From a phage, in NCBI GenBank assembly GCA_011816565.1, contig GCA_011816565.1_3614.1: a DNA stretch of 64,000 bases. The stretch is one strand, 5' to 3'. The first letter of the stretch is position 1. Each line of letters starts with the position of its first letter. The position numbers and the translations under genes were made by a program. This document shows positions 30,643 to 42,603 of the stretch, in pieces. The notes below the pieces were generated by a model. The model made no database searches. It was given only the letters and a program-made list of their open reading frames with translations, and was not told the origin of the DNA.

Positions 30643-31848
30643 ATGATTTTCATCTACGAACATTTCAAAACTCGTAAAGAAGCACGTGACCGCCGTGCAG
30701 AACTTGAGAAGAAGGGTTTCACATGTGCCATTGAGAAAGGCGACACAACCTGGACACTGGCAGTTGGTGCCCCAGAGTTGTTCGATCCTGACCGTGACAG
30801 CGTCTGCTACACCCGTGAGGATTTTGAAACCCGTGAAGAGGCCCGTTTATTTAGATATGGGCTGGAAGATAACGGTAAGTACGCCATGATCTTAGACTTA
30901 GGCGAAGGTTCCGTTAAACGTTGGGGCGTGGTATACCCACTGTGTGTTGTTCACGGTGTGGGGTTTACTGGGGTAGCAATCAAGTCAGAAGAACCTTTAG
31001 TAGAAGTCAAAGATCCGGTGCTGGAAGTGGTGAGCAGTGTGTCTCAGCAACAGACTCGAAGCATCGAGCCTTTGGTAGTTATTTGCGGGGAACTCCTCCA
31101 GATCACCTGCAACGAAGGAATTTTTGAAATTCGCCGCAGCGAAAGTGAGGAAGTTTACCAGAAAGTCTTCGACCATATCTCTGTTCAGGAATATGATGAG
31201 GCAATTGGTGAAATCCTTGTCTGGCTGGAACGCAAGAGTGAGTTCACCACACTTGCAGACAACCTGATCATGAAAGATGGTAAGCTCTACTACTACGGTG
31301 TAGAGATGCGATCCACCATTGCAAAGAAAATTGAGAAAGATTATGCAGACGGAACGCTGGATGACCGCTATGTGAAATTCCTCGTTCGCCTGCTACGCAA
31401 TCCTTCTGCAAAATCTGTAAACATGCTCTACGATTTTATGCAGGCCAATGATATTCAGATTGCAGAAGATGGTCGAATCATTTGCTACAAAGGGGTTCAG
31501 TTTAACGGCAGCAAGTGGGTGGATTGGCACAGTGGTAAAGTCCCACAATACCAAGGTGCTTTTGTATCCATGCCTCGTAACTTTGTAGAGGATGATCCTG
31601 AAGCTGCGTGCTCCTATGGCTTACACTGCGCCAGCAAAGAGTATGCAAAGAGCTACGGCACTGTAATGACTGTCATGGTTGACCCTGCAGATGTAGTTAG
31701 TGTGCCATATCAACACAATAGCGCTAAGTGCCGTGCATGCCGCTATGAGATTGTGGTAGCTCCGGAAGCACGCAAAGATGGAGACCCTATTGAATATGTA
31801 GTTGATCGTGACGGTAACACTATCGACATTCTTTACGAGGAGGCGTAA
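30643..31848 (+). CDS. rIIB: rIIB-like protein
   Basis: 401 aa directly downstream of rIIA-like gene; segment FLVRLLRNPSAKSVNMLYDFMQANDIQIAEDG resembles the conserved rIIB core (from memory). Confidence 0.5.
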   Translation: MIFIYEHFKTRKEARDRRAELEKKGFTCAIEKGDTTWTLAVGAPELFDPDRDSVCYTREDFETREEARLFRYGLEDNGKYAMILDLGEGSVKRWGVVYPLCVVHGVGFTGVAIKSEEPLVEVKDPVLEVVSSVSQQQTRSIEPLVVICGELLQITCNEGIFEIRRSESEEVYQKVFDHISVQEYDEAIGEILVWLERKSEFTTLADNLIMKDGKLYYYGVEMRSTIAKKIEKDYADGTLDDRYVKFLVRLLRNPSAKSVNMLYDFMQANDIQIAEDGRIICYKGVQFNGSKWVDWHSGKVPQYQGAFVSMPRNFVEDDPEAACSYGLHCASKEYAKSYGTVMTVMVDPADVVSVPYQHNSAKCRACRYEIVVAPEARKDGDPIEYVVDRDGNTIDILYEEA

Positions 31849-33218
31849 TGGAAAAAGGGCAGTATGATGTAGGCACAGATGCTGCCCTCGTTGCAATCAT
31901 GAGCGGTGAGAATGTCTTCGTTTCAGGACCTGCAGGTTGTGGGAAGACGTATCTCATCAACATGATCCAGTCAATGTATGGAGACTCTTGCATAACGGTT
32001 GCCCCGACAGGGGTAGCCGCTTTAAACGTTAATGGAGCAACAGCACACCGAACCTTCGATCTTGCAGCAGGTGTGAGCATGGAGTCAGACTGGACCGCAA
32101 TAAGGGCAAAAACAGCAAAGCCTTTGAAAAGCAAGGCATTTACCATCCTAATTATCGATGAAATCTCTATGATCCGTGCTGATAAGTTTATAGAGATGGA
32201 TAGGAAACTTCGCTTCCTTCGAAAAAATGACAAACCTTTCGGAGGCATACAGGTCATATTGTTTGGCGATTTTTACCAGGCACCTCCTGTTGTCTCTTCT
32301 ATGGAGAAGGAGGCCTACTTCAACTTCTACCACACAGACCTATGTTGCTATACCGAATCTTGGAAAGAGCTGGACCTTCACAACATAGCCCTAATAGACC
32401 AGTTCCGACAGGAGTCTATTCGATTTGCCACAATGCTCAACTGTGTTCGTGAGGGTCGTCGCATAAAAGAGGTTGTAGCAGAACTTAATGCTCGCTGTTA
32501 CAAAGGCGGTGTACCAACAGACGCTCTCACAATTTGCGCCACCAACAAACAAGCAGAGGAAGTGAACAGAAGGTTCTATGATGCCATCAACGCCCCAGAG
32601 AAGGTATACACTGGTGAAATGAAGGGTAAGTTTCCCTCCACCCTGCCAGTTGAGCAGGAGATGAAGTTGAAAATTGGCATGAAAGTTATGATAACCGCCA
32701 ACGATGTTGACCCGACGCACAAAGTACCTTATTATGTTAACGGAACACGTGCCACAATTGTTAAATTTAAGAACAAGGCGGTGGTGGTAGAGCTTGAAGA
32801 TGGAACACAGGTTGACATAGAGCAGAGGTTGTGGGAAAATAACGAGTATAAGCCATCTCAGAGATACAACATTGCAGAAAGGAAGATGGAGAAGTTTATA
32901 GAGAGGGTAGTGATTGGGTCATACAGGCAACTCCCTCTGAAATCTGGGTATGCCGTAACATCTCATAAAAGTCAAGGACTTACGCTAGATTGTTACAACC
33001 TGGACCTTGGAAAGAACGGAGCTTTCTCTCCTGGGATGACGTATGTTGCTTTGAGTCGGGTTAAGACAATACAAGGAATAAACTTGTTGCGTCCACTAAG
33101 AGAAGTTGACATTATTGTTGACCCGCGAGTCGTAGAGTTTTACAATACAACATTCCCTGACTTAGACAAAATTGTCAGGAAAGATTTTGAAACCAGAGCC
33201 GAAGAGGGGGACGTATGA
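31848..33218 (+). CDS. dda: Dda-like SF1B DNA helicase
   Basis: Walker A (GPAGCGKT), motif Ia (APTGVAA), Walker B (ILIIDEISM), GDFYQAPPV, motif V/VI (YAVTSHKSQGLT; YVALSRVK). Confidence 0.65.
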   Translation: MEKGQYDVGTDAALVAIMSGENVFVSGPAGCGKTYLINMIQSMYGDSCITVAPTGVAALNVNGATAHRTFDLAAGVSMESDWTAIRAKTAKPLKSKAFTILIIDEISMIRADKFIEMDRKLRFLRKNDKPFGGIQVILFGDFYQAPPVVSSMEKEAYFNFYHTDLCCYTESWKELDLHNIALIDQFRQESIRFATMLNCVREGRRIKEVVAELNARCYKGGVPTDALTICATNKQAEEVNRRFYDAINAPEKVYTGEMKGKFPSTLPVEQEMKLKIGMKVMITANDVDPTHKVPYYVNGTRATIVKFKNKAVVVELEDGTQVDIEQRLWENNEYKPSQRYNIAERKMEKFIERVVIGSYRQLPLKSGYAVTSHKSQGLTLDCYNLDLGKNGAFSPGMTYVALSRVKTIQGINLLRPLREVDIIVDPRVVEFYNTTFPDLDKIVRKDFETRAEEGDV

Positions 33219-33556: not shown

Positions 33557-33617
33557 TAAGATGTGAGTATAAAGGGGAGGCCTCCTCCCCACAAAAAACT
33601 AAGGAGAGCACCAAACG

Positions 33618-34943
33618 ATGAGCAAAACCAAATTAGAACTTACCTGGATAGGTAAAAACGAGCGCAAAAAGTTAGAGCCACACATTTTGTTAGAAGATTC
33701 TAGCAAATCTTACCACAGCCAGAAAGTGACCGAAAACGATATTTTTGATAATAAACTGATTTTTGGAGATAACTTATTAGCATTGAAGGCGCTAGAGCAA
33801 GAGTATGCAGGCAAAGTGAAGTGTGTTTACATAGACCCACCATTCAATACCGGGAGGGCTTTTGAGCATTACGATGATAGCCTGGAGCATTCCATTTGGC
33901 TGGGCTTAATGAGGGATAGGTTAGAAATAATTCGTAATCTTCTAAGTGATGATGGGGTAATATTCGTTCACTTAGATGATTGCGAAATGGCGTATTTAAA
34001 AGTTTTGATGGACGAGATTTTTGGTCGTGCAAATCAGTTAAATACCATATCGATGACCACAAATTCCCCTTCGGGATTTAAGGCAACAGGAGCCACAGTT
34101 TTCTCCACAGCAAACTTTTTGCTTGTATATGCAAAAGATCGCACCCAGAAACCGCTTAACAAAATCTATATACCTAAAGGGTATGATACAGGATATAACA
34201 AATACCTATTAAACCCGGATGACCATTATAAAAATTGGACGTGGTGCGGTATTGCCGATGCGTTTGCAAAGGCCAATGGCTATAAAGATGCAAAAGAAGC
34301 CAAGAAAAAACTGCCTGATACATTCGATGATGAATTAGCACAATTCGCAATTGATAATGCAGAACGTGTATTTCAATCTGTTGCAATTGGTGGTGGTGCT
34401 AAAATAAAGAGAAAAGAAACTATCGAGAAGTCAAAGAAAGATAGGGATAAGGTTTATGTACATCCAAATGAGGATGTTGAAGGATTTTATATCGCAAATG
34501 GTAGGCAAATGGTCTTTTACTCCAATAGGCTTTTGGAAATTGACGGTGAGATGCAACCTGCGGAACTAATAACTGATGTTTGGACAGACATTAGTTGGAA
34601 TGGAATAGCAAATGAAGGCGGCGTTAGTTTCAAAAATGGGAAAAAACCAGAAGCGCTTTTGAAGCGGATTTTCGAAATGTGCACGCGAGAAGGCGATTTG
34701 GTATTGGATTCATTCGGTGGTTCGGGAACTACTGCTGCTGTAGCTCACAAGATGAAAAGACGTTGGATCTCAATCGAGCTAGGTGATCATTGTCATACCC
34801 ATATTATTCCGCGCTTGGAAAAAGTGATCGATGGTGAAGATCAAGGGGGTATTTCTAAGTCTGTAAACTGGCAAGGTGGTGGTGGCTTCCGCTATTACAA
34901 ACTTACTCCGACCTTAATTACGAAAGATAAGTCTGATCAATAA
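33618..34943 (+). CDS. DNA methyltransferase (N6-adenine/N4-cytosine class, type III Mod-like)
   Basis: Catalytic motif IV (VYIDPPFNTG) precedes SAM-binding motif I (DSFGGSGTT); strong RBS (AAGGAGAG). Confidence 0.65.
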   Translation: MSKTKLELTWIGKNERKKLEPHILLEDSSKSYHSQKVTENDIFDNKLIFGDNLLALKALEQEYAGKVKCVYIDPPFNTGRAFEHYDDSLEHSIWLGLMRDRLEIIRNLLSDDGVIFVHLDDCEMAYLKVLMDEIFGRANQLNTISMTTNSPSGFKATGATVFSTANFLLVYAKDRTQKPLNKIYIPKGYDTGYNKYLLNPDDHYKNWTWCGIADAFAKANGYKDAKEAKKKLPDTFDDELAQFAIDNAERVFQSVAIGGGAKIKRKETIEKSKKDRDKVYVHPNEDVEGFYIANGRQMVFYSNRLLEIDGEMQPAELITDVWTDISWNGIANEGGVSFKNGKKPEALLKRIFEMCTREGDLVLDSFGGSGTTAAVAHKMKRRWISIELGDHCHTHIIPRLEKVIDGEDQGGISKSVNWQGGGGFRYYKLTPTLITKDKSDQ

Positions 34944-34956
34944 AGAGTACAATCAA

Positions 34957-35262
34957 ATGATGAAACGTTATAAACCATACACTTTTGAAATCGATTTCGA
35001 ACTAGACGATATGTTCACTGTGGAAGCTCAGGCAGTTGTCCAGTTGCCAGACCCAGAGTGCCGTGATTCTGATGTTGACTATTATGGATTTAGACAGATC
35101 ACTGATGTGCATGTTTACCACAACGGTGAAGAGGTGGACTTCCACAAACTGCCAAACGATATGCGCCACTCAATTTACAAACGTGCAGCCCGTGAACTAG
35201 AGTCCTATCTTGATGCAGCGACGACAGCAGCTGCATTTGCCGAAGAAGTGGGAGGTTTCTGA
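34957..35262 (+). CDS. hypothetical protein
   Basis: 101-aa ORF after the methyltransferase. Confidence 0.45.
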   Translation: MMKRYKPYTFEIDFELDDMFTVEAQAVVQLPDPECRDSDVDYYGFRQITDVHVYHNGEEVDFHKLPNDMRHSIYKRAARELESYLDAATTAAAFAEEVGGF

Positions 35263-35657
35263 TGATTACAGATGTGAAGATTGTCCAATACCACTTAACC
35301 AAGTTGGAAGATGCTGAGAAAGAGCTTGCAGAAGTTCTGAATAGTGGATATACTTTGCTATCATGCGCCTGCTCAGACACCTACGCTGTGTGGACACTTA
35401 TCAGGAAGGAAGAGCCTGCAGGGATCTTGGTGCCAAACCCTAAGATTATTAGTGAGGTGGATGACTACCCCCAGGACGGCCTGCCAGAAGGCTGGGAAGT
35501 ATGGGAAGGTGGTGAAAACCCTGCACCAGGTAAGTGGGTAAAATACAAACTACGTAGTGGTGCACAGTACGCTGACTACTCTGATGACCTAGACTGGAGT
35601 CATTCTTCACCAGGATCATCTGCAAGTTCATATGATATCGTTGCTTTTCAGGAATAA
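35262..35657 (+). CDS. hypothetical protein
   Basis: 131 aa; start overlaps upstream stop. Confidence 0.45.
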   Translation: MITDVKIVQYHLTKLEDAEKELAEVLNSGYTLLSCACSDTYAVWTLIRKEEPAGILVPNPKIISEVDDYPQDGLPEGWEVWEGGENPAPGKWVKYKLRSGAQYADYSDDLDWSHSSPGSSASSYDIVAFQE

Positions 35658-35669
35658 GGAGAGGGTATT

Positions 35670-36152
35670 ATGTCAGATTTTATGTGGAAAGTAGGTTACG
35701 CAGCTCCTGAAATGTGTGAGGCTTGCTTTGTGAAAATAGGCCGCGAGGATATCGACAAAGTGATCCTTAAGTTTCGTGATGTGGCTGTGATCGGCAACCG
35801 AGTGCTTAAGCACTTAAAGAATCTGAAGCTCACCAAAAAGAAATTCTTCGGACTTTTCGAAGAGAAAGTTGATGCTTGGACCCATTGCATTCAGGAAGCT
35901 AAATCTCACTACAGTGCTATCGTTACCCCAGAACGGGTAGCCAAGATGGAAGGACTCATCAACAGCACAGAGTTTGAGTGTCTGAAAGCTGCACTCGATA
36001 GTTATCCGAAATGCCTCAAGCACTTGGACAAGTATGTAGAAAAGGATGGGGAAATGTATCTCACCCTGGACGCATATTATGAGATGCAAGAAATTTTAAA
36101 TTTAGATTTGACATTGGTATCCACCGAGTATACAATAGGTATCCGGGTTTAA
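35670..36152 (+). CDS. hypothetical protein
   Basis: 160 aa with RBS (AAGGAGAGGG); followed by terminator. Confidence 0.5.
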   Translation: MSDFMWKVGYAAPEMCEACFVKIGREDIDKVILKFRDVAVIGNRVLKHLKNLKLTKKKFFGLFEEKVDAWTHCIQEAKSHYSAIVTPERVAKMEGLINSTEFECLKAALDSYPKCLKHLDKYVEKDGEMYLTLDAYYEMQEILNLDLTLVSTEYTIGIRV

Positions 36153-36158
36153 CACTAG

Positions 36159-36186
36159 GCCCTGCCCGAAAGGGTGGGGCTTTTTG
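36159..36186 (+). terminator. rho-independent terminator
   Basis: GCCCTGCCC-GAAA-GGGTGGGGC hairpin plus TTTTT; identical hairpin recurs at 47697. Confidence 0.55.
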
Positions 36187-36203
36187 CATTAGGAGACAGC
36201 AAA

Positions 36204-36968
36204 TTGAAATTTATCTACAAAGAACACTACCACAAAGGTGTTGTGTGGAGTCTATTTGACGGGTCTGGTGGTGCAGTCATTGACTGGGCAAAAGCTGGGT
36301 ACCTGTGCCTGTGCTTTAATGCAGAAGGCGCTGATCACGGCAGTTATGCAGAGGTGATCACCGATCATCCCAACATTCACTATGTGGACTATTGGATTGA
36401 CCCGTGGTTCCCTCAGGAAACTTTTTGCATGTATCCGGCTCCAGATTTTATTCTTGCATTTCCTCCGTGCACGCATTTAGCGGTATCAGGTGCTGCACAT
36501 TTTAAGAAAAAGCTGGCTAAGGATCCTTTGATCCAAATTAATGCTGTAAAGGATGCTCGGGTTGCGGAAGAGCTGGGAGAGATTTACGATTGCCCGTGGC
36601 ATGTAGAGAATCCTGTTGGTGTTATGTCCACACTGTGGCGCAAACCTGATTACCGTTTTCATCCTTCTGACTATGGCGGGTATTTACCGGAGGATGATGT
36701 AAACCCCTGGTTTCCTGAATTTATAGCTCCACGTGATGCCTATCCAAAAATAACTTGCGGCTGGATAGGTAATGGATTTATAATCCCGGCCACAAAACCT
36801 GTCCAGCAAATAGTTGACGCGGTTAGCGGGTATTCCATGCAACACGCCAAGCTGGGTGGAAAGAGTGCAAGAACGAAGATGATCCGAAGCCTCACACCAC
36901 GTGGCTGGGCAAAAGCCGTATTCTTAGCAAACGAGCCTGCAGTAAGGAGCAGAATTAATGGGAAGTAA
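36204..36968 (+). CDS. C5-cytosine methyltransferase-like protein (start uncertain)
   Basis: Motif I-like (LFDGSGG), Pro-Cys motif IV-like (FPPCTHLA, T in place of the usual Q) and ENV-like motif VI (HVENPVGV). Track start 36174 (GTG) lies inside the terminator hairpin; TTG at 36204 follows AGGAGA. No ATG available. Confidence 0.4.
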   Translation: MKFIYKEHYHKGVVWSLFDGSGGAVIDWAKAGYLCLCFNAEGADHGSYAEVITDHPNIHYVDYWIDPWFPQETFCMYPAPDFILAFPPCTHLAVSGAAHFKKKLAKDPLIQINAVKDARVAEELGEIYDCPWHVENPVGVMSTLWRKPDYRFHPSDYGGYLPEDDVNPWFPEFIAPRDAYPKITCGWIGNGFIIPATKPVQQIVDAVSGYSMQHAKLGGKSARTKMIRSLTPRGWAKAVFLANEPAVRSRINGK

Positions 36969-39036
36969 ATTTATGGCATCTGCATACAACCGTTTCGGTG
37001 AGCCAAACCCGAAAGCAACTAAGTATAAAAGTGGGGGAAGTGTGAAACGAGACTATCGTGATGAAAAAGAAGTTGAAACTGTAGAGACTGTTTTAGAAAA
37101 TACTAAAATTGTCCCTGTCCCACAACAAAATATCGGTCTGATGGCTGCACAATATTTTGGTGTGCGATCAGCATTGTCCCAAGAAGACGGTGTGACAGTC
37201 ACTGCAACATATTTCCCATATTACGACCGCTACGGAAATCTGTCTGGTTTCAAAAAGCGTGACTGGACTATTCCTAAAGAGCAAAGGGGCCATTTCTCCG
37301 TTGTTGGCATCGTAAAGGCCAACTCCCAGATGTTTGGTCAAAAGCTGTGTGCATCTTCCAACAACCGTAAGCAGATTAACGTTTGTGAGGGAGAAGGTGA
37401 TGTTATTGCAGCATGGCAGGCTGCATATCAGATACAAGTAAAAGGGATTCTCACCAACGCTAAAGCCCCGGCAAAGGTGAAGCAGTGGGCTAAAGAGGTC
37501 CAGGACGGGATCGACGCAGTTATCAACGGTGGTGATCTGGCAGGAAAACCCTGCCTGCCTTTTGTTGGAATTAACTGTGGATGTGCAAACGCAGTAGATA
37601 CTTTTGCAAACAATGAGAAGTTTATCCGTAGCTATGGAACAGTTGTGCTGGCAATGGATAACGATGCAGCTAACGAGGTAGAGAAGCAAAAACACGTCAT
37701 TAAAGGTGTTGAGGCCACGCACAATATCGCAGCATTTTTGATGGCTGATAACGTTTACCACGTAGAATACCCTGGTGAAGTAAATGACCCTGACGGTGTA
37801 AAAGATATCCGAGACATGCTGAAGGCTAAAAAGCTGGAAGATATTGTCAACATGTTCCGGCACCCTGTTAAATATGTGCCTGATGCTGTGTCGGATTTAG
37901 AAGACTTCTCTATCGAGTCTTTGCGGAAAAAGACTTCCAACGGGGTAGATATCAGTGCAGAGTTCCCAAAACTGCAAAAAATGCTAAAAGGCTTGCACAA
38001 AGGGACACTTGTAATGCTTACAGGTCCATCAGGCGGCGGTAAAACAACCGTGGCTAAAAAACTGGAACACTGTATTGCAAGATACCTAATGGACCCGACA
38101 TGCCCGAAGGCCGATGACTATGAAGAGGATGATCGTCTATGCATGATTCATCTTGAGGAGGACCCAGAGGAAGCAATTAACTCCTTGTATGCAAACCAGT
38201 TAGGGTTTGATGTTAAAGAGTTTGTTGAAGATCCTAGCCAGTTTTTAACTGATCAAGAACACGCAGAGATTCACCAATCATGGGCAAAAGCTGGAAAAAT
38301 CAAAGTGTTCAAACATTTCGGGTCTATTCCAGTGGACGAGTTGATTACCAAGCTTAAGCAAATGGTTTGCCTGTACCATTGTCGTTATATTGTGCTGGAT
38401 CACCTGTCCATGGTAATTTCAGGGCTTAATGTTAAGGATGAGCGAAAAGAACTGGACATGGCTATGACCCAACTGGCTGCGTTTTGTAAGCAGTTTAACG
38501 TGTTTATCTTGGTGATCGCTCACCTCAAACGTACAGAGATTGTGCCCCCTAAGGACAAGGATGGTAACCCATTACCTTTCTGGTATCCTGTGCGAAAAGA
38601 GAATTTGCGAGGATCGGCTGGGCTTGAACAGTTGAGTTGGGTAGTCATAGGTGTCGAGGCCGAAGAAATGGTGGATCGTTCTCGTGGGCGTGTCCGTCTG
38701 GTAGGTCTTAAAAACCGTCCAGCAAAAACTTTAGGTATTGCTGACACTTTAGTTATGGACCCACATACAGGTAAGTTCCATGATGCCAGTAATTGGTACT
38801 GGGACAAAGAAATGCAAATGTTTACAGATGGAGAAGGTGGGGAGGTTGTTTGGAGACCTCAGGCTATGTTTGAGGATCAGGAGCATGCAGTTGTAGAAAC
38901 ACCTATGGGCAAGGTTGTGGCTGATAAGGTTGTAACTCCTACTGTTAAGCCTGTTGACACGCAGGAAGACCTCCAGTACGATGATCCGTCCTCTGACCAG
39001 GTTCCTGGTTTTGAGGATGATGAAACGCCTTTTTAA
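36958..39036 (+). CDS. DNA primase-helicase (TOPRIM + DnaB-like)
   Basis: TOPRIM motifs (VCEGEGDVIAAW; VVLAMDNDAANE), Walker A (GPSGGGKTT) and DnaB-like helicase motifs (RYIVLDHLSMV). Confidence 0.65.
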   Translation: MGSKFMASAYNRFGEPNPKATKYKSGGSVKRDYRDEKEVETVETVLENTKIVPVPQQNIGLMAAQYFGVRSALSQEDGVTVTATYFPYYDRYGNLSGFKKRDWTIPKEQRGHFSVVGIVKANSQMFGQKLCASSNNRKQINVCEGEGDVIAAWQAAYQIQVKGILTNAKAPAKVKQWAKEVQDGIDAVINGGDLAGKPCLPFVGINCGCANAVDTFANNEKFIRSYGTVVLAMDNDAANEVEKQKHVIKGVEATHNIAAFLMADNVYHVEYPGEVNDPDGVKDIRDMLKAKKLEDIVNMFRHPVKYVPDAVSDLEDFSIESLRKKTSNGVDISAEFPKLQKMLKGLHKGTLVMLTGPSGGGKTTVAKKLEHCIARYLMDPTCPKADDYEEDDRLCMIHLEEDPEEAINSLYANQLGFDVKEFVEDPSQFLTDQEHAEIHQSWAKAGKIKVFKHFGSIPVDELITKLKQMVCLYHCRYIVLDHLSMVISGLNVKDERKELDMAMTQLAAFCKQFNVFILVIAHLKRTEIVPPKDKDGNPLPFWYPVRKENLRGSAGLEQLSWVVIGVEAEEMVDRSRGRVRLVGLKNRPAKTLGIADTLVMDPHTGKFHDASNWYWDKEMQMFTDGEGGEVVWRPQAMFEDQEHAVVETPMGKVVADKVVTPTVKPVDTQEDLQYDDPSSDQVPGFEDDETPF

Positions 39037-39094: not shown

Positions 39095-39829
39095 ATGAAC
39101 GAGTTCAGAGATCACTGTGTAGCCAATCACTTGTGGTCAGAAATATTGGAGTATGACGGTCAAAATCTTTTTTGGAAGATAGACATTCTGGCAGGCAGCG
39201 GTGTAGGATATGTTAAAACTTCAGCAGGCTCCAGAGCTGACAAGGGGCAAGATGCTGATGGCAGGCCTGTGGTTAGTCTAGGAAAGCATTGCACTAAAGG
39301 TGCCCACGTTATAATCTGGGAAATGTTTAACGGTCCTGTACCAGAAGGGTATGAGGTTGACCACATCAAGGAGATAAGGGAAACAGGTGGTGTGGCTGAC
39401 AACAGTATTCAAAATTTGCAACTACTCGAACCTACAGATAACAAAAAGAAAAGTTGCAAGATACCTCGTAGCAACAACAAATCTGGCAGGGTCGGGGTGC
39501 ACTATTCTGAAGAAAGAGAGGCGTGGGTAGCTCAAGGCACAGACTCTGTAGGTGAAAGGGTCTGGCTAGGCCAGTACAGAACTTTTGAAGAGGCAGAGTG
39601 GGCAAGAAAGTTCTTCGAAGATAATGGTTTTTCGCACAAGAGTGGAAGAGCCGTGCAGTATAATAACACCAGCGGTTGCTCAGGGGTGAATTGGGATAAA
39701 ACCCATGAAAGATGGGTAGCCAGAATTTATGTAGATGGTAAAAGGAAATGCCTTGGGTATTTCAAGAACAGGGACGATGCAATAGCTGCAAGAAAGAATG
39801 CTGAGAAGACACAGGAGGAGACAGTATGA
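39095..39829 (+). CDS. HNH homing endonuclease with AP2-type DNA-binding domains
   Basis: HNH core (YEVDHIKEIRETGGVADNSIQNLQLL) and two AP2-like repeats (SGRVGVHYSEEREAWVAQ; SGVNWDKTHERWVARIYVDGKRKCLGYF); free-standing between primase-helicase and polymerase; stop overlaps polymerase start. Confidence 0.65.
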   Translation: MNEFRDHCVANHLWSEILEYDGQNLFWKIDILAGSGVGYVKTSAGSRADKGQDADGRPVVSLGKHCTKGAHVIIWEMFNGPVPEGYEVDHIKEIRETGGVADNSIQNLQLLEPTDNKKKSCKIPRSNNKSGRVGVHYSEEREAWVAQGTDSVGERVWLGQYRTFEEAEWARKFFEDNGFSHKSGRAVQYNNTSGCSGVNWDKTHERWVARIYVDGKRKCLGYFKNRDDAIAARKNAEKTQEETV

Positions 39830-42603
39830 GTAATTGGTGCTTCGATCTGGAGGCCTCCGGGCTCTTGGAAGACCCAGATCTTTATTATCACTGCGGTCTG
39901 TTTAAAGAGCTGAATAAGAACCGTTTTATGCTGTTCCTTCCTCTAAATGACCGCACACACTACTCCGAGGAGGATATAGAGAAGGCTAAGAACTTTATTC
40001 TGGCAAAGAAAACTCTTTATAAAGATTTTGAAGTTCGCATAGCAGATTTTTCGGAGTTGGAAGGTTGGCTTACAGGAAATTCCGACTGGTCACCAACAGC
40101 TTTGAACTGCCATAACTGCTACAGTTATGACTTTATGCTGATGGAGAGATTATCCGGTATTCATTTTGATATGTTCCGTGATCCTAAATGTATGGGGACT
40201 ATCAACGACCACCAGGTTAACCTGTTCGATACGTTGGCGATGAGCCGAATCTTGTGGCCTGATCGCCCTTTACCAAAAGGTTGTCCGGACTCTGTATTCA
40301 ACCCGGTTACTAAGAAAATGCAGCCTGTTGGTCCTCACGGCCTTATGGCATGGGGCTACGCCCTTGGTAACCAGAAAGTTCAAATTGATGACTGGCGCGA
40401 TCTTCCGTTGTGGAAGTATGTGGATCGTGTATTTGAGGACGTTATCATCCAGGAGCTGCTCTGGAAAGAACTGGTAGCGGAATCAAAAGGTGTATTCTAC
40501 GGCAAATCTGACATGCAGAACTTTATGTACGATCCTGCCAAAGAGAAGCCGAAAGGGTTCAAGAAGATCACCTGGAAGAACGCATTACGCCGAGGCATGC
40601 TGCAGCACTTCCTGATGGAGCTGCAGGCCCGTCAGGGTGTGTATTTCGACATAGACGGGGCTATTGCTTTACGTGACCGTTGCGATGCGTGGATGAAAGA
40701 AATAGCTGATCGTGTTGAACCACAACTACCTTTAAAAGAGCTGTCAATGTCTCAGCGGCCTAAGTTCCCTGAAAAGCCGTTTAACCAGGATGGGACAATC
40801 TCCAATAATGGTTGGAAATGGTTAAAAGACAAGCTTGGCTACCCTGTGGACATGAGTGCTTTAGAATTCAAAGCTCCTCCTAAGCGAGCATTTACCTCCA
40901 CAGGAGATGTCAGTAAGATGGGGATAAAATGGTGTGAAGAGATGGGCTGTAAAGACCCAGACAAGATGGCTGATTTCTTGAGAGGTTATATTAAGGGCAC
41001 CTCCACACCACAACCTTTACCTAAAGAGCTGATGGATCAGGCAATAAGCGATCTGCAGCAGAAGCGAATGCCTGACTGCAAGATACCTATGAAAATCAGC
41101 AATCAGGACGATATTAAGCGATACCTGATCAGTGCTGGTTGGCTTCCGACAATGTGGAGAACTAAGGATGTAACTAAAGACAGCAAGAAGAAAGCTCTAC
41201 CTGATGCAGATGTTGATGCACGAGTATATGCATATATGGACGAGCTTTTAGAGTCAGAGTATTGTGACCTGATTATCAACTTCTGGAACAAAACTGATGC
41301 TAAGTTCCAGACAACCGTGCACAAGTTCCGAAGCTTTCCTAACTCCGAAAGGATTAAAAAGGAAGTATTCGGGAAAATACGTAGAAAAGCTAGGGCACTT
41401 ATTACTTCTCCGCAACTGAAAGATACGTTTGGACACCTATGCCCGAATCTTGAAAAATTGAACGGAGAGATGGCTAAAGATATCGTCTTGTGGTTATCAT
41501 TGCGAAACCGCAGATCGGTCCTTGATCCAATCAAGGAGGATAAGGTTGATACTGGTCTTCTTAATCACCCACGTTTGAAGATTGACCATAAGCTTCCTGC
41601 TAAAAGTTCTGGATTAACAAACACTTCCCGACAGAAACACAGTATTTGTGCAAACATGCCTAAACCATCTCCTAAAGTGGTTATGGGTAAAGAGATGCGT
41701 AGTCTGTGGGGTGTTCCTCCAGGATACTTTGAGATCGGTATTGACGGGTCCAACTTAGAGCAGCTTATCGGGGCTTGGGGTGCCTTTGAGTTCGACAACG
41801 GCCTGTATTACGATGTTGTAAGTAACGGGGACGCACACCAAAACAATGCTGAGGCATATACAAAAGTAGCAGGTAGAGAGGTGTCTCGTAACGACGGTAA
41901 ACCTATCACGTATGGGGTTATGTATGGGGCACAAAAAGATAAAGTTGCAGATATGCTGGACATCTCTCCAGAGTTGGGACAAAGGGTAATCGATGCACTC
42001 TGGGATGCCAACCCTGGTCTTAAGGGGCGTAAAGAAGATCTGGAGAAATTCTGGGAAGCAACGGGTAAGAAGTTTATCTACTCTTTTGATGGTCATGCTA
42101 TCTGGACCCGATCTAAACACTCTTTACTTAATGCATACCAACAAAATGGCGGCGCATCGTTGTGTGACTTAGTTGGGATACTCATGCACCATCAAATGGT
42201 GAAGCGTGGGTGGTACGATGAAGGTGTTCGTCGTATTATCTATTACCATGACGAATATCAGCTTCAAGTCCCTGACACACCGAAGTATAAGACTGTGTAC
42301 ACCTTCGACACAATCGAAGAACTGGAAGCATTTAAGGCAGAGCAGGAGGCCAAACTTCATGTGTTCGACGGTCATAAGTACAAAAAGGCACGCAAGGATG
42401 AGGACGGAAACGAAGTGGTTGACAGAGACGGAAACACGGTGTACGATCCTATCCTGAACGATGACGGAAAGCTTGAACTTATCTGGAGCCCTGTGGGTGA
42501 AATGGTGGTGCATTGCTTCTGGCAAGCTTCTAAAATGATGGGCGTCCCGTTCCAGATCACAGGTGAATACTTGTGTGGTCGTAATTGGGGTGATTGTCAC
42601 TAA
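39826..42603 (+). CDS. family A DNA polymerase with 3'-5' exonuclease domain
   Basis: Exo I motif (CFDLEASG), motif A-like (IGIDGSNLEQ), motif B-like (KPITYGVMYGAQ), motif C (YYHDEYQL). Confidence 0.7.
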   Translation: MSNWCFDLEASGLLEDPDLYYHCGLFKELNKNRFMLFLPLNDRTHYSEEDIEKAKNFILAKKTLYKDFEVRIADFSELEGWLTGNSDWSPTALNCHNCYSYDFMLMERLSGIHFDMFRDPKCMGTINDHQVNLFDTLAMSRILWPDRPLPKGCPDSVFNPVTKKMQPVGPHGLMAWGYALGNQKVQIDDWRDLPLWKYVDRVFEDVIIQELLWKELVAESKGVFYGKSDMQNFMYDPAKEKPKGFKKITWKNALRRGMLQHFLMELQARQGVYFDIDGAIALRDRCDAWMKEIADRVEPQLPLKELSMSQRPKFPEKPFNQDGTISNNGWKWLKDKLGYPVDMSALEFKAPPKRAFTSTGDVSKMGIKWCEEMGCKDPDKMADFLRGYIKGTSTPQPLPKELMDQAISDLQQKRMPDCKIPMKISNQDDIKRYLISAGWLPTMWRTKDVTKDSKKKALPDADVDARVYAYMDELLESEYCDLIINFWNKTDAKFQTTVHKFRSFPNSERIKKEVFGKIRRKARALITSPQLKDTFGHLCPNLEKLNGEMAKDIVLWLSLRNRRSVLDPIKEDKVDTGLLNHPRLKIDHKLPAKSSGLTNTSRQKHSICANMPKPSPKVVMGKEMRSLWGVPPGYFEIGIDGSNLEQLIGAWGAFEFDNGLYYDVVSNGDAHQNNAEAYTKVAGREVSRNDGKPITYGVMYGAQKDKVADMLDISPELGQRVIDALWDANPGLKGRKEDLEKFWEATGKKFIYSFDGHAIWTRSKHSLLNAYQQNGGASLCDLVGILMHHQMVKRGWYDEGVRRIIYYHDEYQLQVPDTPKYKTVYTFDTIEELEAFKAEQEAKLHVFDGHKYKKARKDEDGNEVVDRDGNTVYDPILNDDGKLELIWSPVGEMVVHCFWQASKMMGVPFQITGEYLCGRNWGDCH

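Follow-up and report, generated by a model that had tools for sequence, protein, structure and literature searches.

The 64,000-nucleotide stretch of phage DNA analyzed here (contig GCA_011816565.1_3614.1 of the NCBI GenBank assembly GCA_011816565.1; hereafter the window) was found to be a segment of a Vequintavirus (rV5-like) Escherichia coli phage genome that carries two DNA methyltransferase genes. The first open reading frame (ORF), ORF1 (33618-34943), encodes an orphan beta-class N6-adenine DNA methyltransferase. By its sequence it is the core of a Type III Mod subunit, with the N-terminal, methyltransferase, and target-recognition domains and without the C-terminal module of approximately 125 residues. 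The second, ORF2 (36204-36968), encodes a short Dcm-like C5-cytosine DNA methyltransferase. Both genes, as well as all of their features given below, are on the plus strand. Judging from their sequences, both products are probably active stand-alone methyltransferases that are expressed with the replication genes and pre-methylate progeny DNA against particular restriction systems. Annotations of both genes already exist for close relatives, and the ORF2 family has been characterized experimentally, so the finding is sound and largely ordinary; what is new here is the exact origin and architecture of ORF1, which give a testable host-range prediction.

The 6.1-kb stretch around both genes shared 98.7% identity with Escherichia phage WalterGehring (Bas51) and 97-99% identity with about 100 further rV5-like Vequintavirus phages, and the whole window was collinear with positions 30,688-95,428 of Bas51 (MZ501111.1), with an overall identity of about 98%. 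The counterparts of ORF1 and ORF2 are annotated in Bas51 as a "putative N6 adenine methyltransferase" (bas51_0070) and a "Dcm-like C5 cytosine methyltransferase" (bas51_0074), respectively. An earlier note on this DNA had recognized two methyltransferase genes of different classes, and this was borne out by a beta-class amino-methyltransferase domain (PF01555) in ORF1 and by the C5-cytosine methyltransferase motifs and fold of ORF2.

Domain architecture of ORF1

ORF1 encodes 441 amino acids from an ATG codon located 10 nucleotides downstream of a ribosome-binding site (RBS) read from the sequence as AAGGAGA (33601-33607). Its translation contains the catalytic motif IV DPPF (amino acids 73-76; 33834-33845) and the S-adenosylmethionine (AdoMet)-binding motif I FGGSG (amino acids 366-370; 34713-34727). 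The segment YIDPPF (amino acids 71-76) is far N-terminal to FGGSG and the target-recognition domain (TRD) lies between them, which is the motif order of the beta class. Residues D73, P74, and P75 of the catalytic motif, as well as F366, G368, S369, and G370 of the cofactor motif, were invariant among 60 homologues. The match to PF01555 scored 145.1 bits (cut-off 26.7) and covered domain positions 1-216 of 221. The beta-class assignment previously made from DPPF ahead of FGGSG was hence supported by both the motifs and the domain.

Similarity to Type III Mod subunits was also evident. Solved Mod subunits among the PDB sequences were matched by ORF1, and the PADLOC model for Type III methyltransferases was matched at 2.8e-205, although the match covered only positions 2-444 of the 575 in the profile. 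The EcoP15I Mod (PDB 4zcf) shares the beta-class order with ORF1, in that its TRD is inserted between motifs IV-VIII and motifs X, I-III. Its specificity, CAGCAG, is not expected to be shared by ORF1.

Capture of ORF1 from a Type III system of E. coli

A database match to an E. coli protein of 567 amino acids (P0273, WP_024226319-type) extended over the entire ORF1 with 97% amino acid identity. At the DNA level, positions 33605-34952 of the window aligned with the E. coli mod gene at 94.3% identity. The homology spanned from 13 nucleotides before the ATG to approximately codon 445, with none beyond, while the E. coli gene runs about 125 codons further. Because it begins at 33605, part of the ORF1 RBS was transferred together with the coding sequence. 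Identity to the E. coli Mod was 96-100% over amino acids 151-335, which contain the TRD. The two proteins have identical DPPF and FGGSG motifs, whereas the phage copy is without the C-terminal residues, is without Res, and is located in the replication module of a lytic phage.

In E. coli, the mod gene is directly followed by a gene encoding a Res of 910-912 amino acids (PADLOC REase_III model, 8.8e-191), and the pair is located inside a genomic (defence) island that also encodes a DrmD-like SNF2 helicase and homologues of AbiD and AbiU. Among 5,426 complete genomes of E. coli, 29 carried the Mod homologue, in every case on the chromosome. Of 50,697 phage records searched, 87 contained an ORF1 homologue with at least 90% identity, and all of these were of the Vequintavirus type, including some deposited under the name "Campylobacter phage"; in 83 of the 87 records ORF1 was conserved at 95-99%. 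The next best phage match after the Vequintavirus-type genomes had an identity of 42%. Full-length homologues with 60-77% identity occurred across many bacterial phyla, and the direction of transfer was therefore from host to phage. The capture was a recent one.

The E. coli source locus was also considered as a MADS system, as RefSeq tags a small helix-turn-helix gene there "MAD1". This assignment was rejected, since both Mod and Res match Type III models strongly. A MADS system requires MAD6-8, and its methyltransferase recognizes a bipartite site.

Additionally, three loci were compared (L004, 4106-14464; L016, 366-9571; L010, 3985-9112). A DrmD-like SNF2 helicase of about 950 amino acids was observed upstream of the Mod-Res pair in both E. 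coli and Acinetobacter. The defence genes inserted between the helicase and Mod-Res differed, with AbiD and AbiU in one of these two and AAA_21 and DUF4276 in the other. An environmental Mod-like gene of 442 amino acids was found with a short SNF2 protein encoded on one side and a TnsA-like protein on the other. Rather than being plain Type III, the SNF2-Mod-Res locus may represent a conserved system of several genes that includes a cargo slot.

Absence of the putative Res-docking module and integrity of ORF1

Neither a Res-docking C-terminal domain nor an adjacent res gene was found for ORF1: its Res-linked homologues extend approximately 125 residues past the ORF1 end, and the E. coli homologue has a res gene next to it. 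Lacking a res partner, ORF1 is therefore derived from Mod but stands outside any Type III system. In EcoP15I, the N-terminal and methyltransferase domains hold together a Mod2 dimer, which is a methyltransferase on its own; Res is contacted mainly by the C-terminal domain of a single Mod protomer, and this domain belongs to neither the dimer nor the catalytic core (PMC4490356). ORF1 stops before the position equivalent to this Res-touching domain (amino acids 539-644 of EcoP15I Mod). A phmmer search of the E. coli Mod C-terminal module against the PDB sequences gave no meaningful match, including to the EcoP15I C-terminal domain, so its Res-docking role is assigned by position only. Taken together with the TRD identity, this architecture suggests that ORF1 retains all that is needed to recognize and methylate the site of the E. 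coli system, minus the Res-docking module.

Shortened forms were not limited to ORF1. Several independent forms of about 440 amino acids stop at the same boundary, with the extra module present in the Res-linked forms; for example, the full-length Acinetobacter form, like the one in E. coli, has a Res gene downstream. A form of 444 amino acids on a second phage-like contig was a mosaic, with an identity of 95-99% in the TRD and 60-78% in the flanks.

The missing residues could be taken as a sign that ORF1 is a functionless, decaying remnant of a captured mod gene, but this is very unlikely. Comparison of the phage copy with that of E. coli gave a ratio of nonsynonymous to synonymous substitution rates (dN/dS) of 0.085, with a dS of 0.18 over 436 codons. 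The Pfam domain is complete, as are all of the catalytic motifs. The high conservation among Vequintavirus-type records, the end boundary shared with other lineages, and the location of the EcoP15I C-terminal domain outside of both the dimer and the catalytic core also argue against decay.

ORF2 and the family of short Dcm-like methyltransferases

ORF2 encodes 254 amino acids from a TTG codon at 36204, located 7 nucleotides downstream of an RBS read from the sequence as AGGAGA (36191-36196). This start agrees with the coding sequence annotated in WalterGehring and with the database protein P0001, in line with the non-ATG start proposed earlier. The mechanical ORF begins at GTG 36174, a codon within a G+C-rich, terminator-like hairpin (36157-36182) that is located between ORF2 and the ORF before it and has a T run after it. 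At its 3' end, ORF2 overlaps the start of the primase/helicase gene (36958) by 11 nucleotides. A near-consensus sigma-70-like promoter (TTGACA-17-TACAAT, 11 of 12 positions) was also observed within the end of the preceding ORF, with the hairpin directly after it (36108-36182); a transcript from this promoter would have the hairpin at its 5' end, before the ORF2 RBS.

The motifs LFDGSGG, FPPC, and ENP on which the C5-cytosine assignment was originally based were all present in the translation, where the C5-methyltransferase set consists of FDGSGG, FPPCT, and VENPVG. Motif I FDGSGG (amino acids 18-23; 36255-36272) aligned with its counterparts in M.HaeIII and DNMT3B. Motif IV FPPCT (amino acids 86-90; 36459-36473), which includes the catalytic Cys89, aligned with PPCQ of M.HaeIII, PCN of DNMT3B, and C82 of the Dcm-like protein of phage K42 (K42 Dcm). 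Glu135 of motif VI ENP (amino acids 135-137; 36606-36614) aligned with E128 of K42 Dcm. If the enzyme acts as these motifs suggest, Cys89 would attack C6 of the target cytosine, Glu135 would protonate N3, and AdoMet would give the methyl group, yielding 5-methylcytosine (5mC).

A full-length match was found between ORF2 and PHROG 757 (phrog_757; 8.6e-87, with residues 10-261 aligned to positions 3-226 of the 247 in the profile). The family, whose members are about 225-260 amino acids long, included 3,540 matches in a collection of 5.8 billion proteins, with 2,029 representatives at 50% clustering. Homologues were identified by tblastn in 1,506 phage records, and were carried by Vequintavirus, Drexlerviridae, Dhillonvirus, Krischvirus, and many phages of Klebsiella, Salmonella, Vibrio, and Shewanella. 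Across 67 family sequences, P87, P88, C89, and the ENP motif were invariant, the Thr90 that follows the catalytic Cys was at least 90% conserved, and a C-terminal RSLTPRG motif was invariant or nearly so. In two proteins from phage contigs of about 137 kb (P0002 and P0003, with 79-80% identity to ORF2), GSE or GSD was observed in place of GSG in motif I, and their cofactor binding may be altered.

Resemblance to classical enzymes was detected mainly through the family. ORF2 itself had no match to PF00145 at E <= 0.01, nor any match in NCBIfam or PADLOC, and nine of 17 family members matched PF00145 weakly (best 1.2e-5). The family profile aligned motifs I-IV with those of M.HaeIII and DNMT3B, the latter of which has Asn after the Cys. 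A phmmer search of ORF2 against PDB returned only a spurious match to a sperm protein and a weak match to motif I of M.HaeIII, and an hhalign comparison of the family with the single sequence of E. coli Dcm aligned motif IV alone. The methyltransferase fold on which the earlier note had made its view of ORF2 depend was present in a structure model with a predicted local distance difference test (pLDDT) score of 92, which showed the C5-methyltransferase fold. Like M.HhaI, M.HaeIII, E. coli Dcm, and the catalytic domain of DNMT3, ORF2 combines a Rossmann-type fold with motif I, a PC nucleophile, and an ENV-type Glu. Unlike these classical enzymes, it is approximately 70-220 residues shorter, its target-recognition region is very small, and the catalytic Cys is followed by Thr instead of Gln.

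Experimental evidence for the family came from work on the retron Ec86. A preprint reported that all escape mutations of phage K42 (KarlJaspers strain) were in a 711-bp "Dcm-like" gene, whose expression activates the retron. K42 Dcm raised 5mC on the multicopy single-stranded DNA (msDNA) of the retron, as measured by liquid chromatography coupled to mass spectrometry (LC-MS), and the quadruple mutant C82A, E128A, K175A, K176A did not. This result is cited as established in a later peer-reviewed paper (PMC12916289). The KarlJaspers Dcm shared 54% identity with ORF2 over 235 residues (E 1e-86). The two are alike in length class, in FPPCT, ENPV, and RSLTPRG, and in being orphan genes of lytic coliphages; however, K42/KarlJaspers (Bas06), the source of the Ec86/Eco1 trigger, belongs to the Drexlerviridae, and the Vequintavirus ORF2 is likened to its Dcm by sequence only.

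These data bear on whether ORF2 is a divergent or non-methylating variant, as had been suggested from the Thr after the catalytic Cys. The Thr is indeed present, but it is not a sign of divergence, since it is the norm of the family; PCT is normal in more than 3,500 proteins, and the Asn of DNMT3 indicates that Gln is not obligatory at this position. A catalytically dead derivative, for example a protein that binds DNA or AdoMet, would be consistent with the missing PF00145 match, with a length of 254 amino acids as opposed to over 300 in classical enzymes, with the Thr itself, and with the altered motif I of the two close relatives. Such a derivative is nevertheless highly improbable, given that PPC and ENP are invariant in the family, that the modeled core fold appears complete, and that 5mC is made by K42 Dcm but not by a mutant lacking the catalytic Cys and Glu.

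Of even lower probability is the transfer of a group other than methyl, such as a carboxymethyl group from carboxy-S-adenosylmethionine (Cx-SAM) in the manner of CmoX, which would create a handle for hypermodification. Cx-SAM is provided in E. coli by CmoA, but CmoX candidates are defined by SPPC and a carboxylate-binding Arg, and are usually found beside phage cmoA or ligase genes (PMC12783734). ORF2 instead has FPPC, which places it outside of CmoX, the Bas51 annotation includes neither cmoA nor a ligase, and the characterized member of the family gave 5mC.

Published methylation of the sister phage Bas51

The methylation calling on virion DNA that the earlier note had proposed as a check is available in part: a 2025 study sequenced virion DNA of Bas51 by nanopore and called N6-methyladenine (6mA, m6A) only (PMC12548924), and the check thus stands for a sister phage and 6mA, not for the window phage itself or for 5mC. 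The methylated adenines included 1,405 in GATC, 509 in GTAC, and 576 elsewhere, while in a T83P mutant of the Bas51 "N6 adenine methyltransferase" the corresponding counts were 35, 511, and 349 (PMC12548924). The reconstructed Bas51 genome contained 703 GATC and 258 GTAC sites. Comparison of these sites with the methylated adenines (509 of 516 for GTAC) indicated that essentially every adenine in both motifs was methylated on both strands (~99%).

The GATC enzyme published as the Bas51 trigger of the retrons Asa1 and Squ1 was considered as the ORF1 counterpart and rejected, as the residues D69, D79, and T83 fit bas51_0176 and neither ORF1 nor ORF2. The gene bas51_0176 (MZ501111.1, 108091-108624) encodes a Dam-like GATC enzyme of 177 amino acids, and bas51_0200 (MZ501111.1, 124069-124887) encodes an adenine methyltransferase of 272 amino acids with a GNPPF motif, for which searches of Pfam and the PDB sequences gave no match. 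Both are located beyond the window, and they bring the Bas51 total to four methyltransferases. Because the GTAC sites and about 349 other m6A sites persist without bas51_0176 activity, they are phage-dependent, and their candidate enzymes are the ORF1 orthologue and bas51_0200. An asymmetric motif methylated on one strand, which would fall into the class outside GATC and GTAC, would be the better fit for a Type III-derived enzyme such as the ORF1 orthologue. A literature search for Vequintavirus methylomes found none beyond the retron paper.

Genomic context and absence of a restriction partner

ORF1 and ORF2 are flanked by a Dda/PIF1-like helicase gene upstream of ORF1 (31848-33218) and by primase/helicase (36958-39036) and DNA polymerase (39826-42603) genes downstream, so the label "replication module" used in the earlier note is correct. 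Further neighbors included rIIA, rIIB, and a homing endonuclease. The polymerase gene of the window is continuous (42249-42250), and that of Bas51 is interrupted by an insert of about 840 bp with a homing endonuclease (MZ501111.1, 73087-73930).

Three small, conserved, and unrelated ORFs (34957-36152) separate the two methyltransferase genes. The one directly 3' of ORF1 (34957-35262) encodes a conserved hypothetical protein of 101 amino acids (phrog_4240) that weakly matched (1.1e-5) the C-terminal part of PHROG 1573, a family annotated as "DNA methyltransferase". A tblastn search of this ORF with the missing C-terminus of the E. coli Mod returned only noise.

The view that no restriction partner is nearby also held. 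When the cognate Res of E. coli was used as a tblastn query, no match was obtained in the window or among the 50,697 phage records, and neither a Res nor any restriction endonuclease was found in the window, where the Bas51 annotation includes homing endonucleases only. Separately, about 16-26 GenBank records of "Campylobacter phages" (MG065661, MG065662, MG065677, and others; host C. jejuni) shared ~99% identity in this region with E. coli Vequintavirus, and these records are probably mislabelled.

The frequencies of recognition sites over the whole window (1-64000) were compared with expectations from second-order Markov simulations (n=200). A strong deficit was observed for some restriction-type sites. 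RCCGGY was depleted, with five sites observed and 38 expected (z -5.3), as were GGWCC (57 observed, 86 expected) and CCGG (100 observed, 134 expected), and AGACC was under-represented (49 observed, 68 expected). No depletion was found for GATC or GATATC, nor for CCWGG, which occurred 138 times with 138 expected.

Proposed function and alternatives

As both genes are orphans, the anti-restriction and epigenetic roles named in the earlier note were reasonable readings. Under the favored one, pre-methylation of progeny DNA, virion DNA would reach the next host already methylated and protected against particular restriction systems. The near-identical target-recognition region suggests that ORF1 has the same methylation site as the E. 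coli Mod; phage DNA methylated there would be immune to the corresponding Res and to isospecific systems. Without the C-terminal module, ORF1 may methylate this site without nucleating a restriction complex.

The benefit of ORF2 would be less specific, for example a shield from 5mC-sensitive restriction by EcoRII-type enzymes. A CCWGG-type specificity, with methylation of the inner cytosine, is the leading guess. The observed frequency of CCWGG is compatible with its methylation by ORF2 and proves nothing. Methylation of the inner cytosine of CCWGG does not create the purine-methylcytosine (R-mC) sites cut by McrBC, which fits the isolation of many such phages on MG1655. As a side effect, ORF2-type enzymes may be sensed by methylation-triggered retrons.

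Several points weigh against pre-methylation. Besides the missing PF00145 match of ORF2 and the lack of detectable similarity between the E. coli Mod module and the EcoP15I domain, the 5mC and m6A data come from K42 Dcm and from Bas51 DNA, not from the ORF1 and ORF2 proteins. For K42 Dcm, specificity for CCWGG was an assumption taken from the host Dcm, its only support being the mutation of the msDNA site, and the GTAC and other m6A classes of Bas51 could belong to bas51_0200 instead of the ORF1 orthologue. Moreover, the cognate Type III system is rare, with a frequency of ~0.5% among complete E. coli genomes. Finally, the BASEL study found the Vequintavirinae to be exceptionally susceptible to every restriction-modification (R-M) system tested, and any protection must therefore be narrow.

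Two other functions were considered, each of them rather unlikely. One is that the phage Mod is a dominant-negative inhibitor of the host Type III enzyme, acting through mixed dimers with the host Mod or through occupancy of the sites in a form to which Res is blind. Mixed dimers are conceivable because the 97% identity to the host Mod extends across the dimerization surfaces.

The other, of similarly low probability, is a mainly phage-internal epigenetic role for both methyltransferases, in the timing of replication or packaging, in transcription control, or in the distinction of phage from host DNA. It would be consistent with the location of both genes in the replication module and the overlap of ORF2 with the primase/helicase start codon, with the overlap of a Dcm-like gene and a helicase gene in the Dhillonvirus "bob", with the presence of four methyltransferases in the phage, and with the sensitivity of the Vequintavirinae to the R-M systems tested. 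However, ORF1 is nearly identical to the Mod of a restriction system and has the same TRD, for which selection to evade that system is the simplest explanation, and no phage process known to need such marks was identified in this analysis.

The arrangement in Escherichia phage bob (L018, 1077-4771) was also observed in its own right: the final part of the helicase gene is overlapped by the Dcm-like gene, after which come genes for an HNH endonuclease and for another methyltransferase, which is Dam-like. Dcm-like genes paired with adenine methyltransferases close to replication genes hence recur in unrelated phage families.

Implications for Vequintavirus biology

ORF1 represents a clear case of a phage capturing solely that half of a host defence which marks self. 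Were it to act as a dominant-negative subunit, it would exemplify anti-restriction via subunit poisoning with a stolen and trimmed host subunit, and would target the Type III enzyme within a conserved SNF2-helicase-linked defence locus. As the Dcm-like family triggers retron Eco1, ORF2 may, in addition to shielding the phage, be a liability to it. The combination of four methyltransferases with a high sensitivity to common laboratory R-M systems indicates a protection that is narrow rather than general. The rV5-like phages, which are candidates for phage therapy, belong to the coliphages that are isolated most often, and the origin of ORF1 predicts a determinant of their host range: protection would be expected on the approximately 0.5% of strains that carry the cognate system, as well as on those with isospecific ones.

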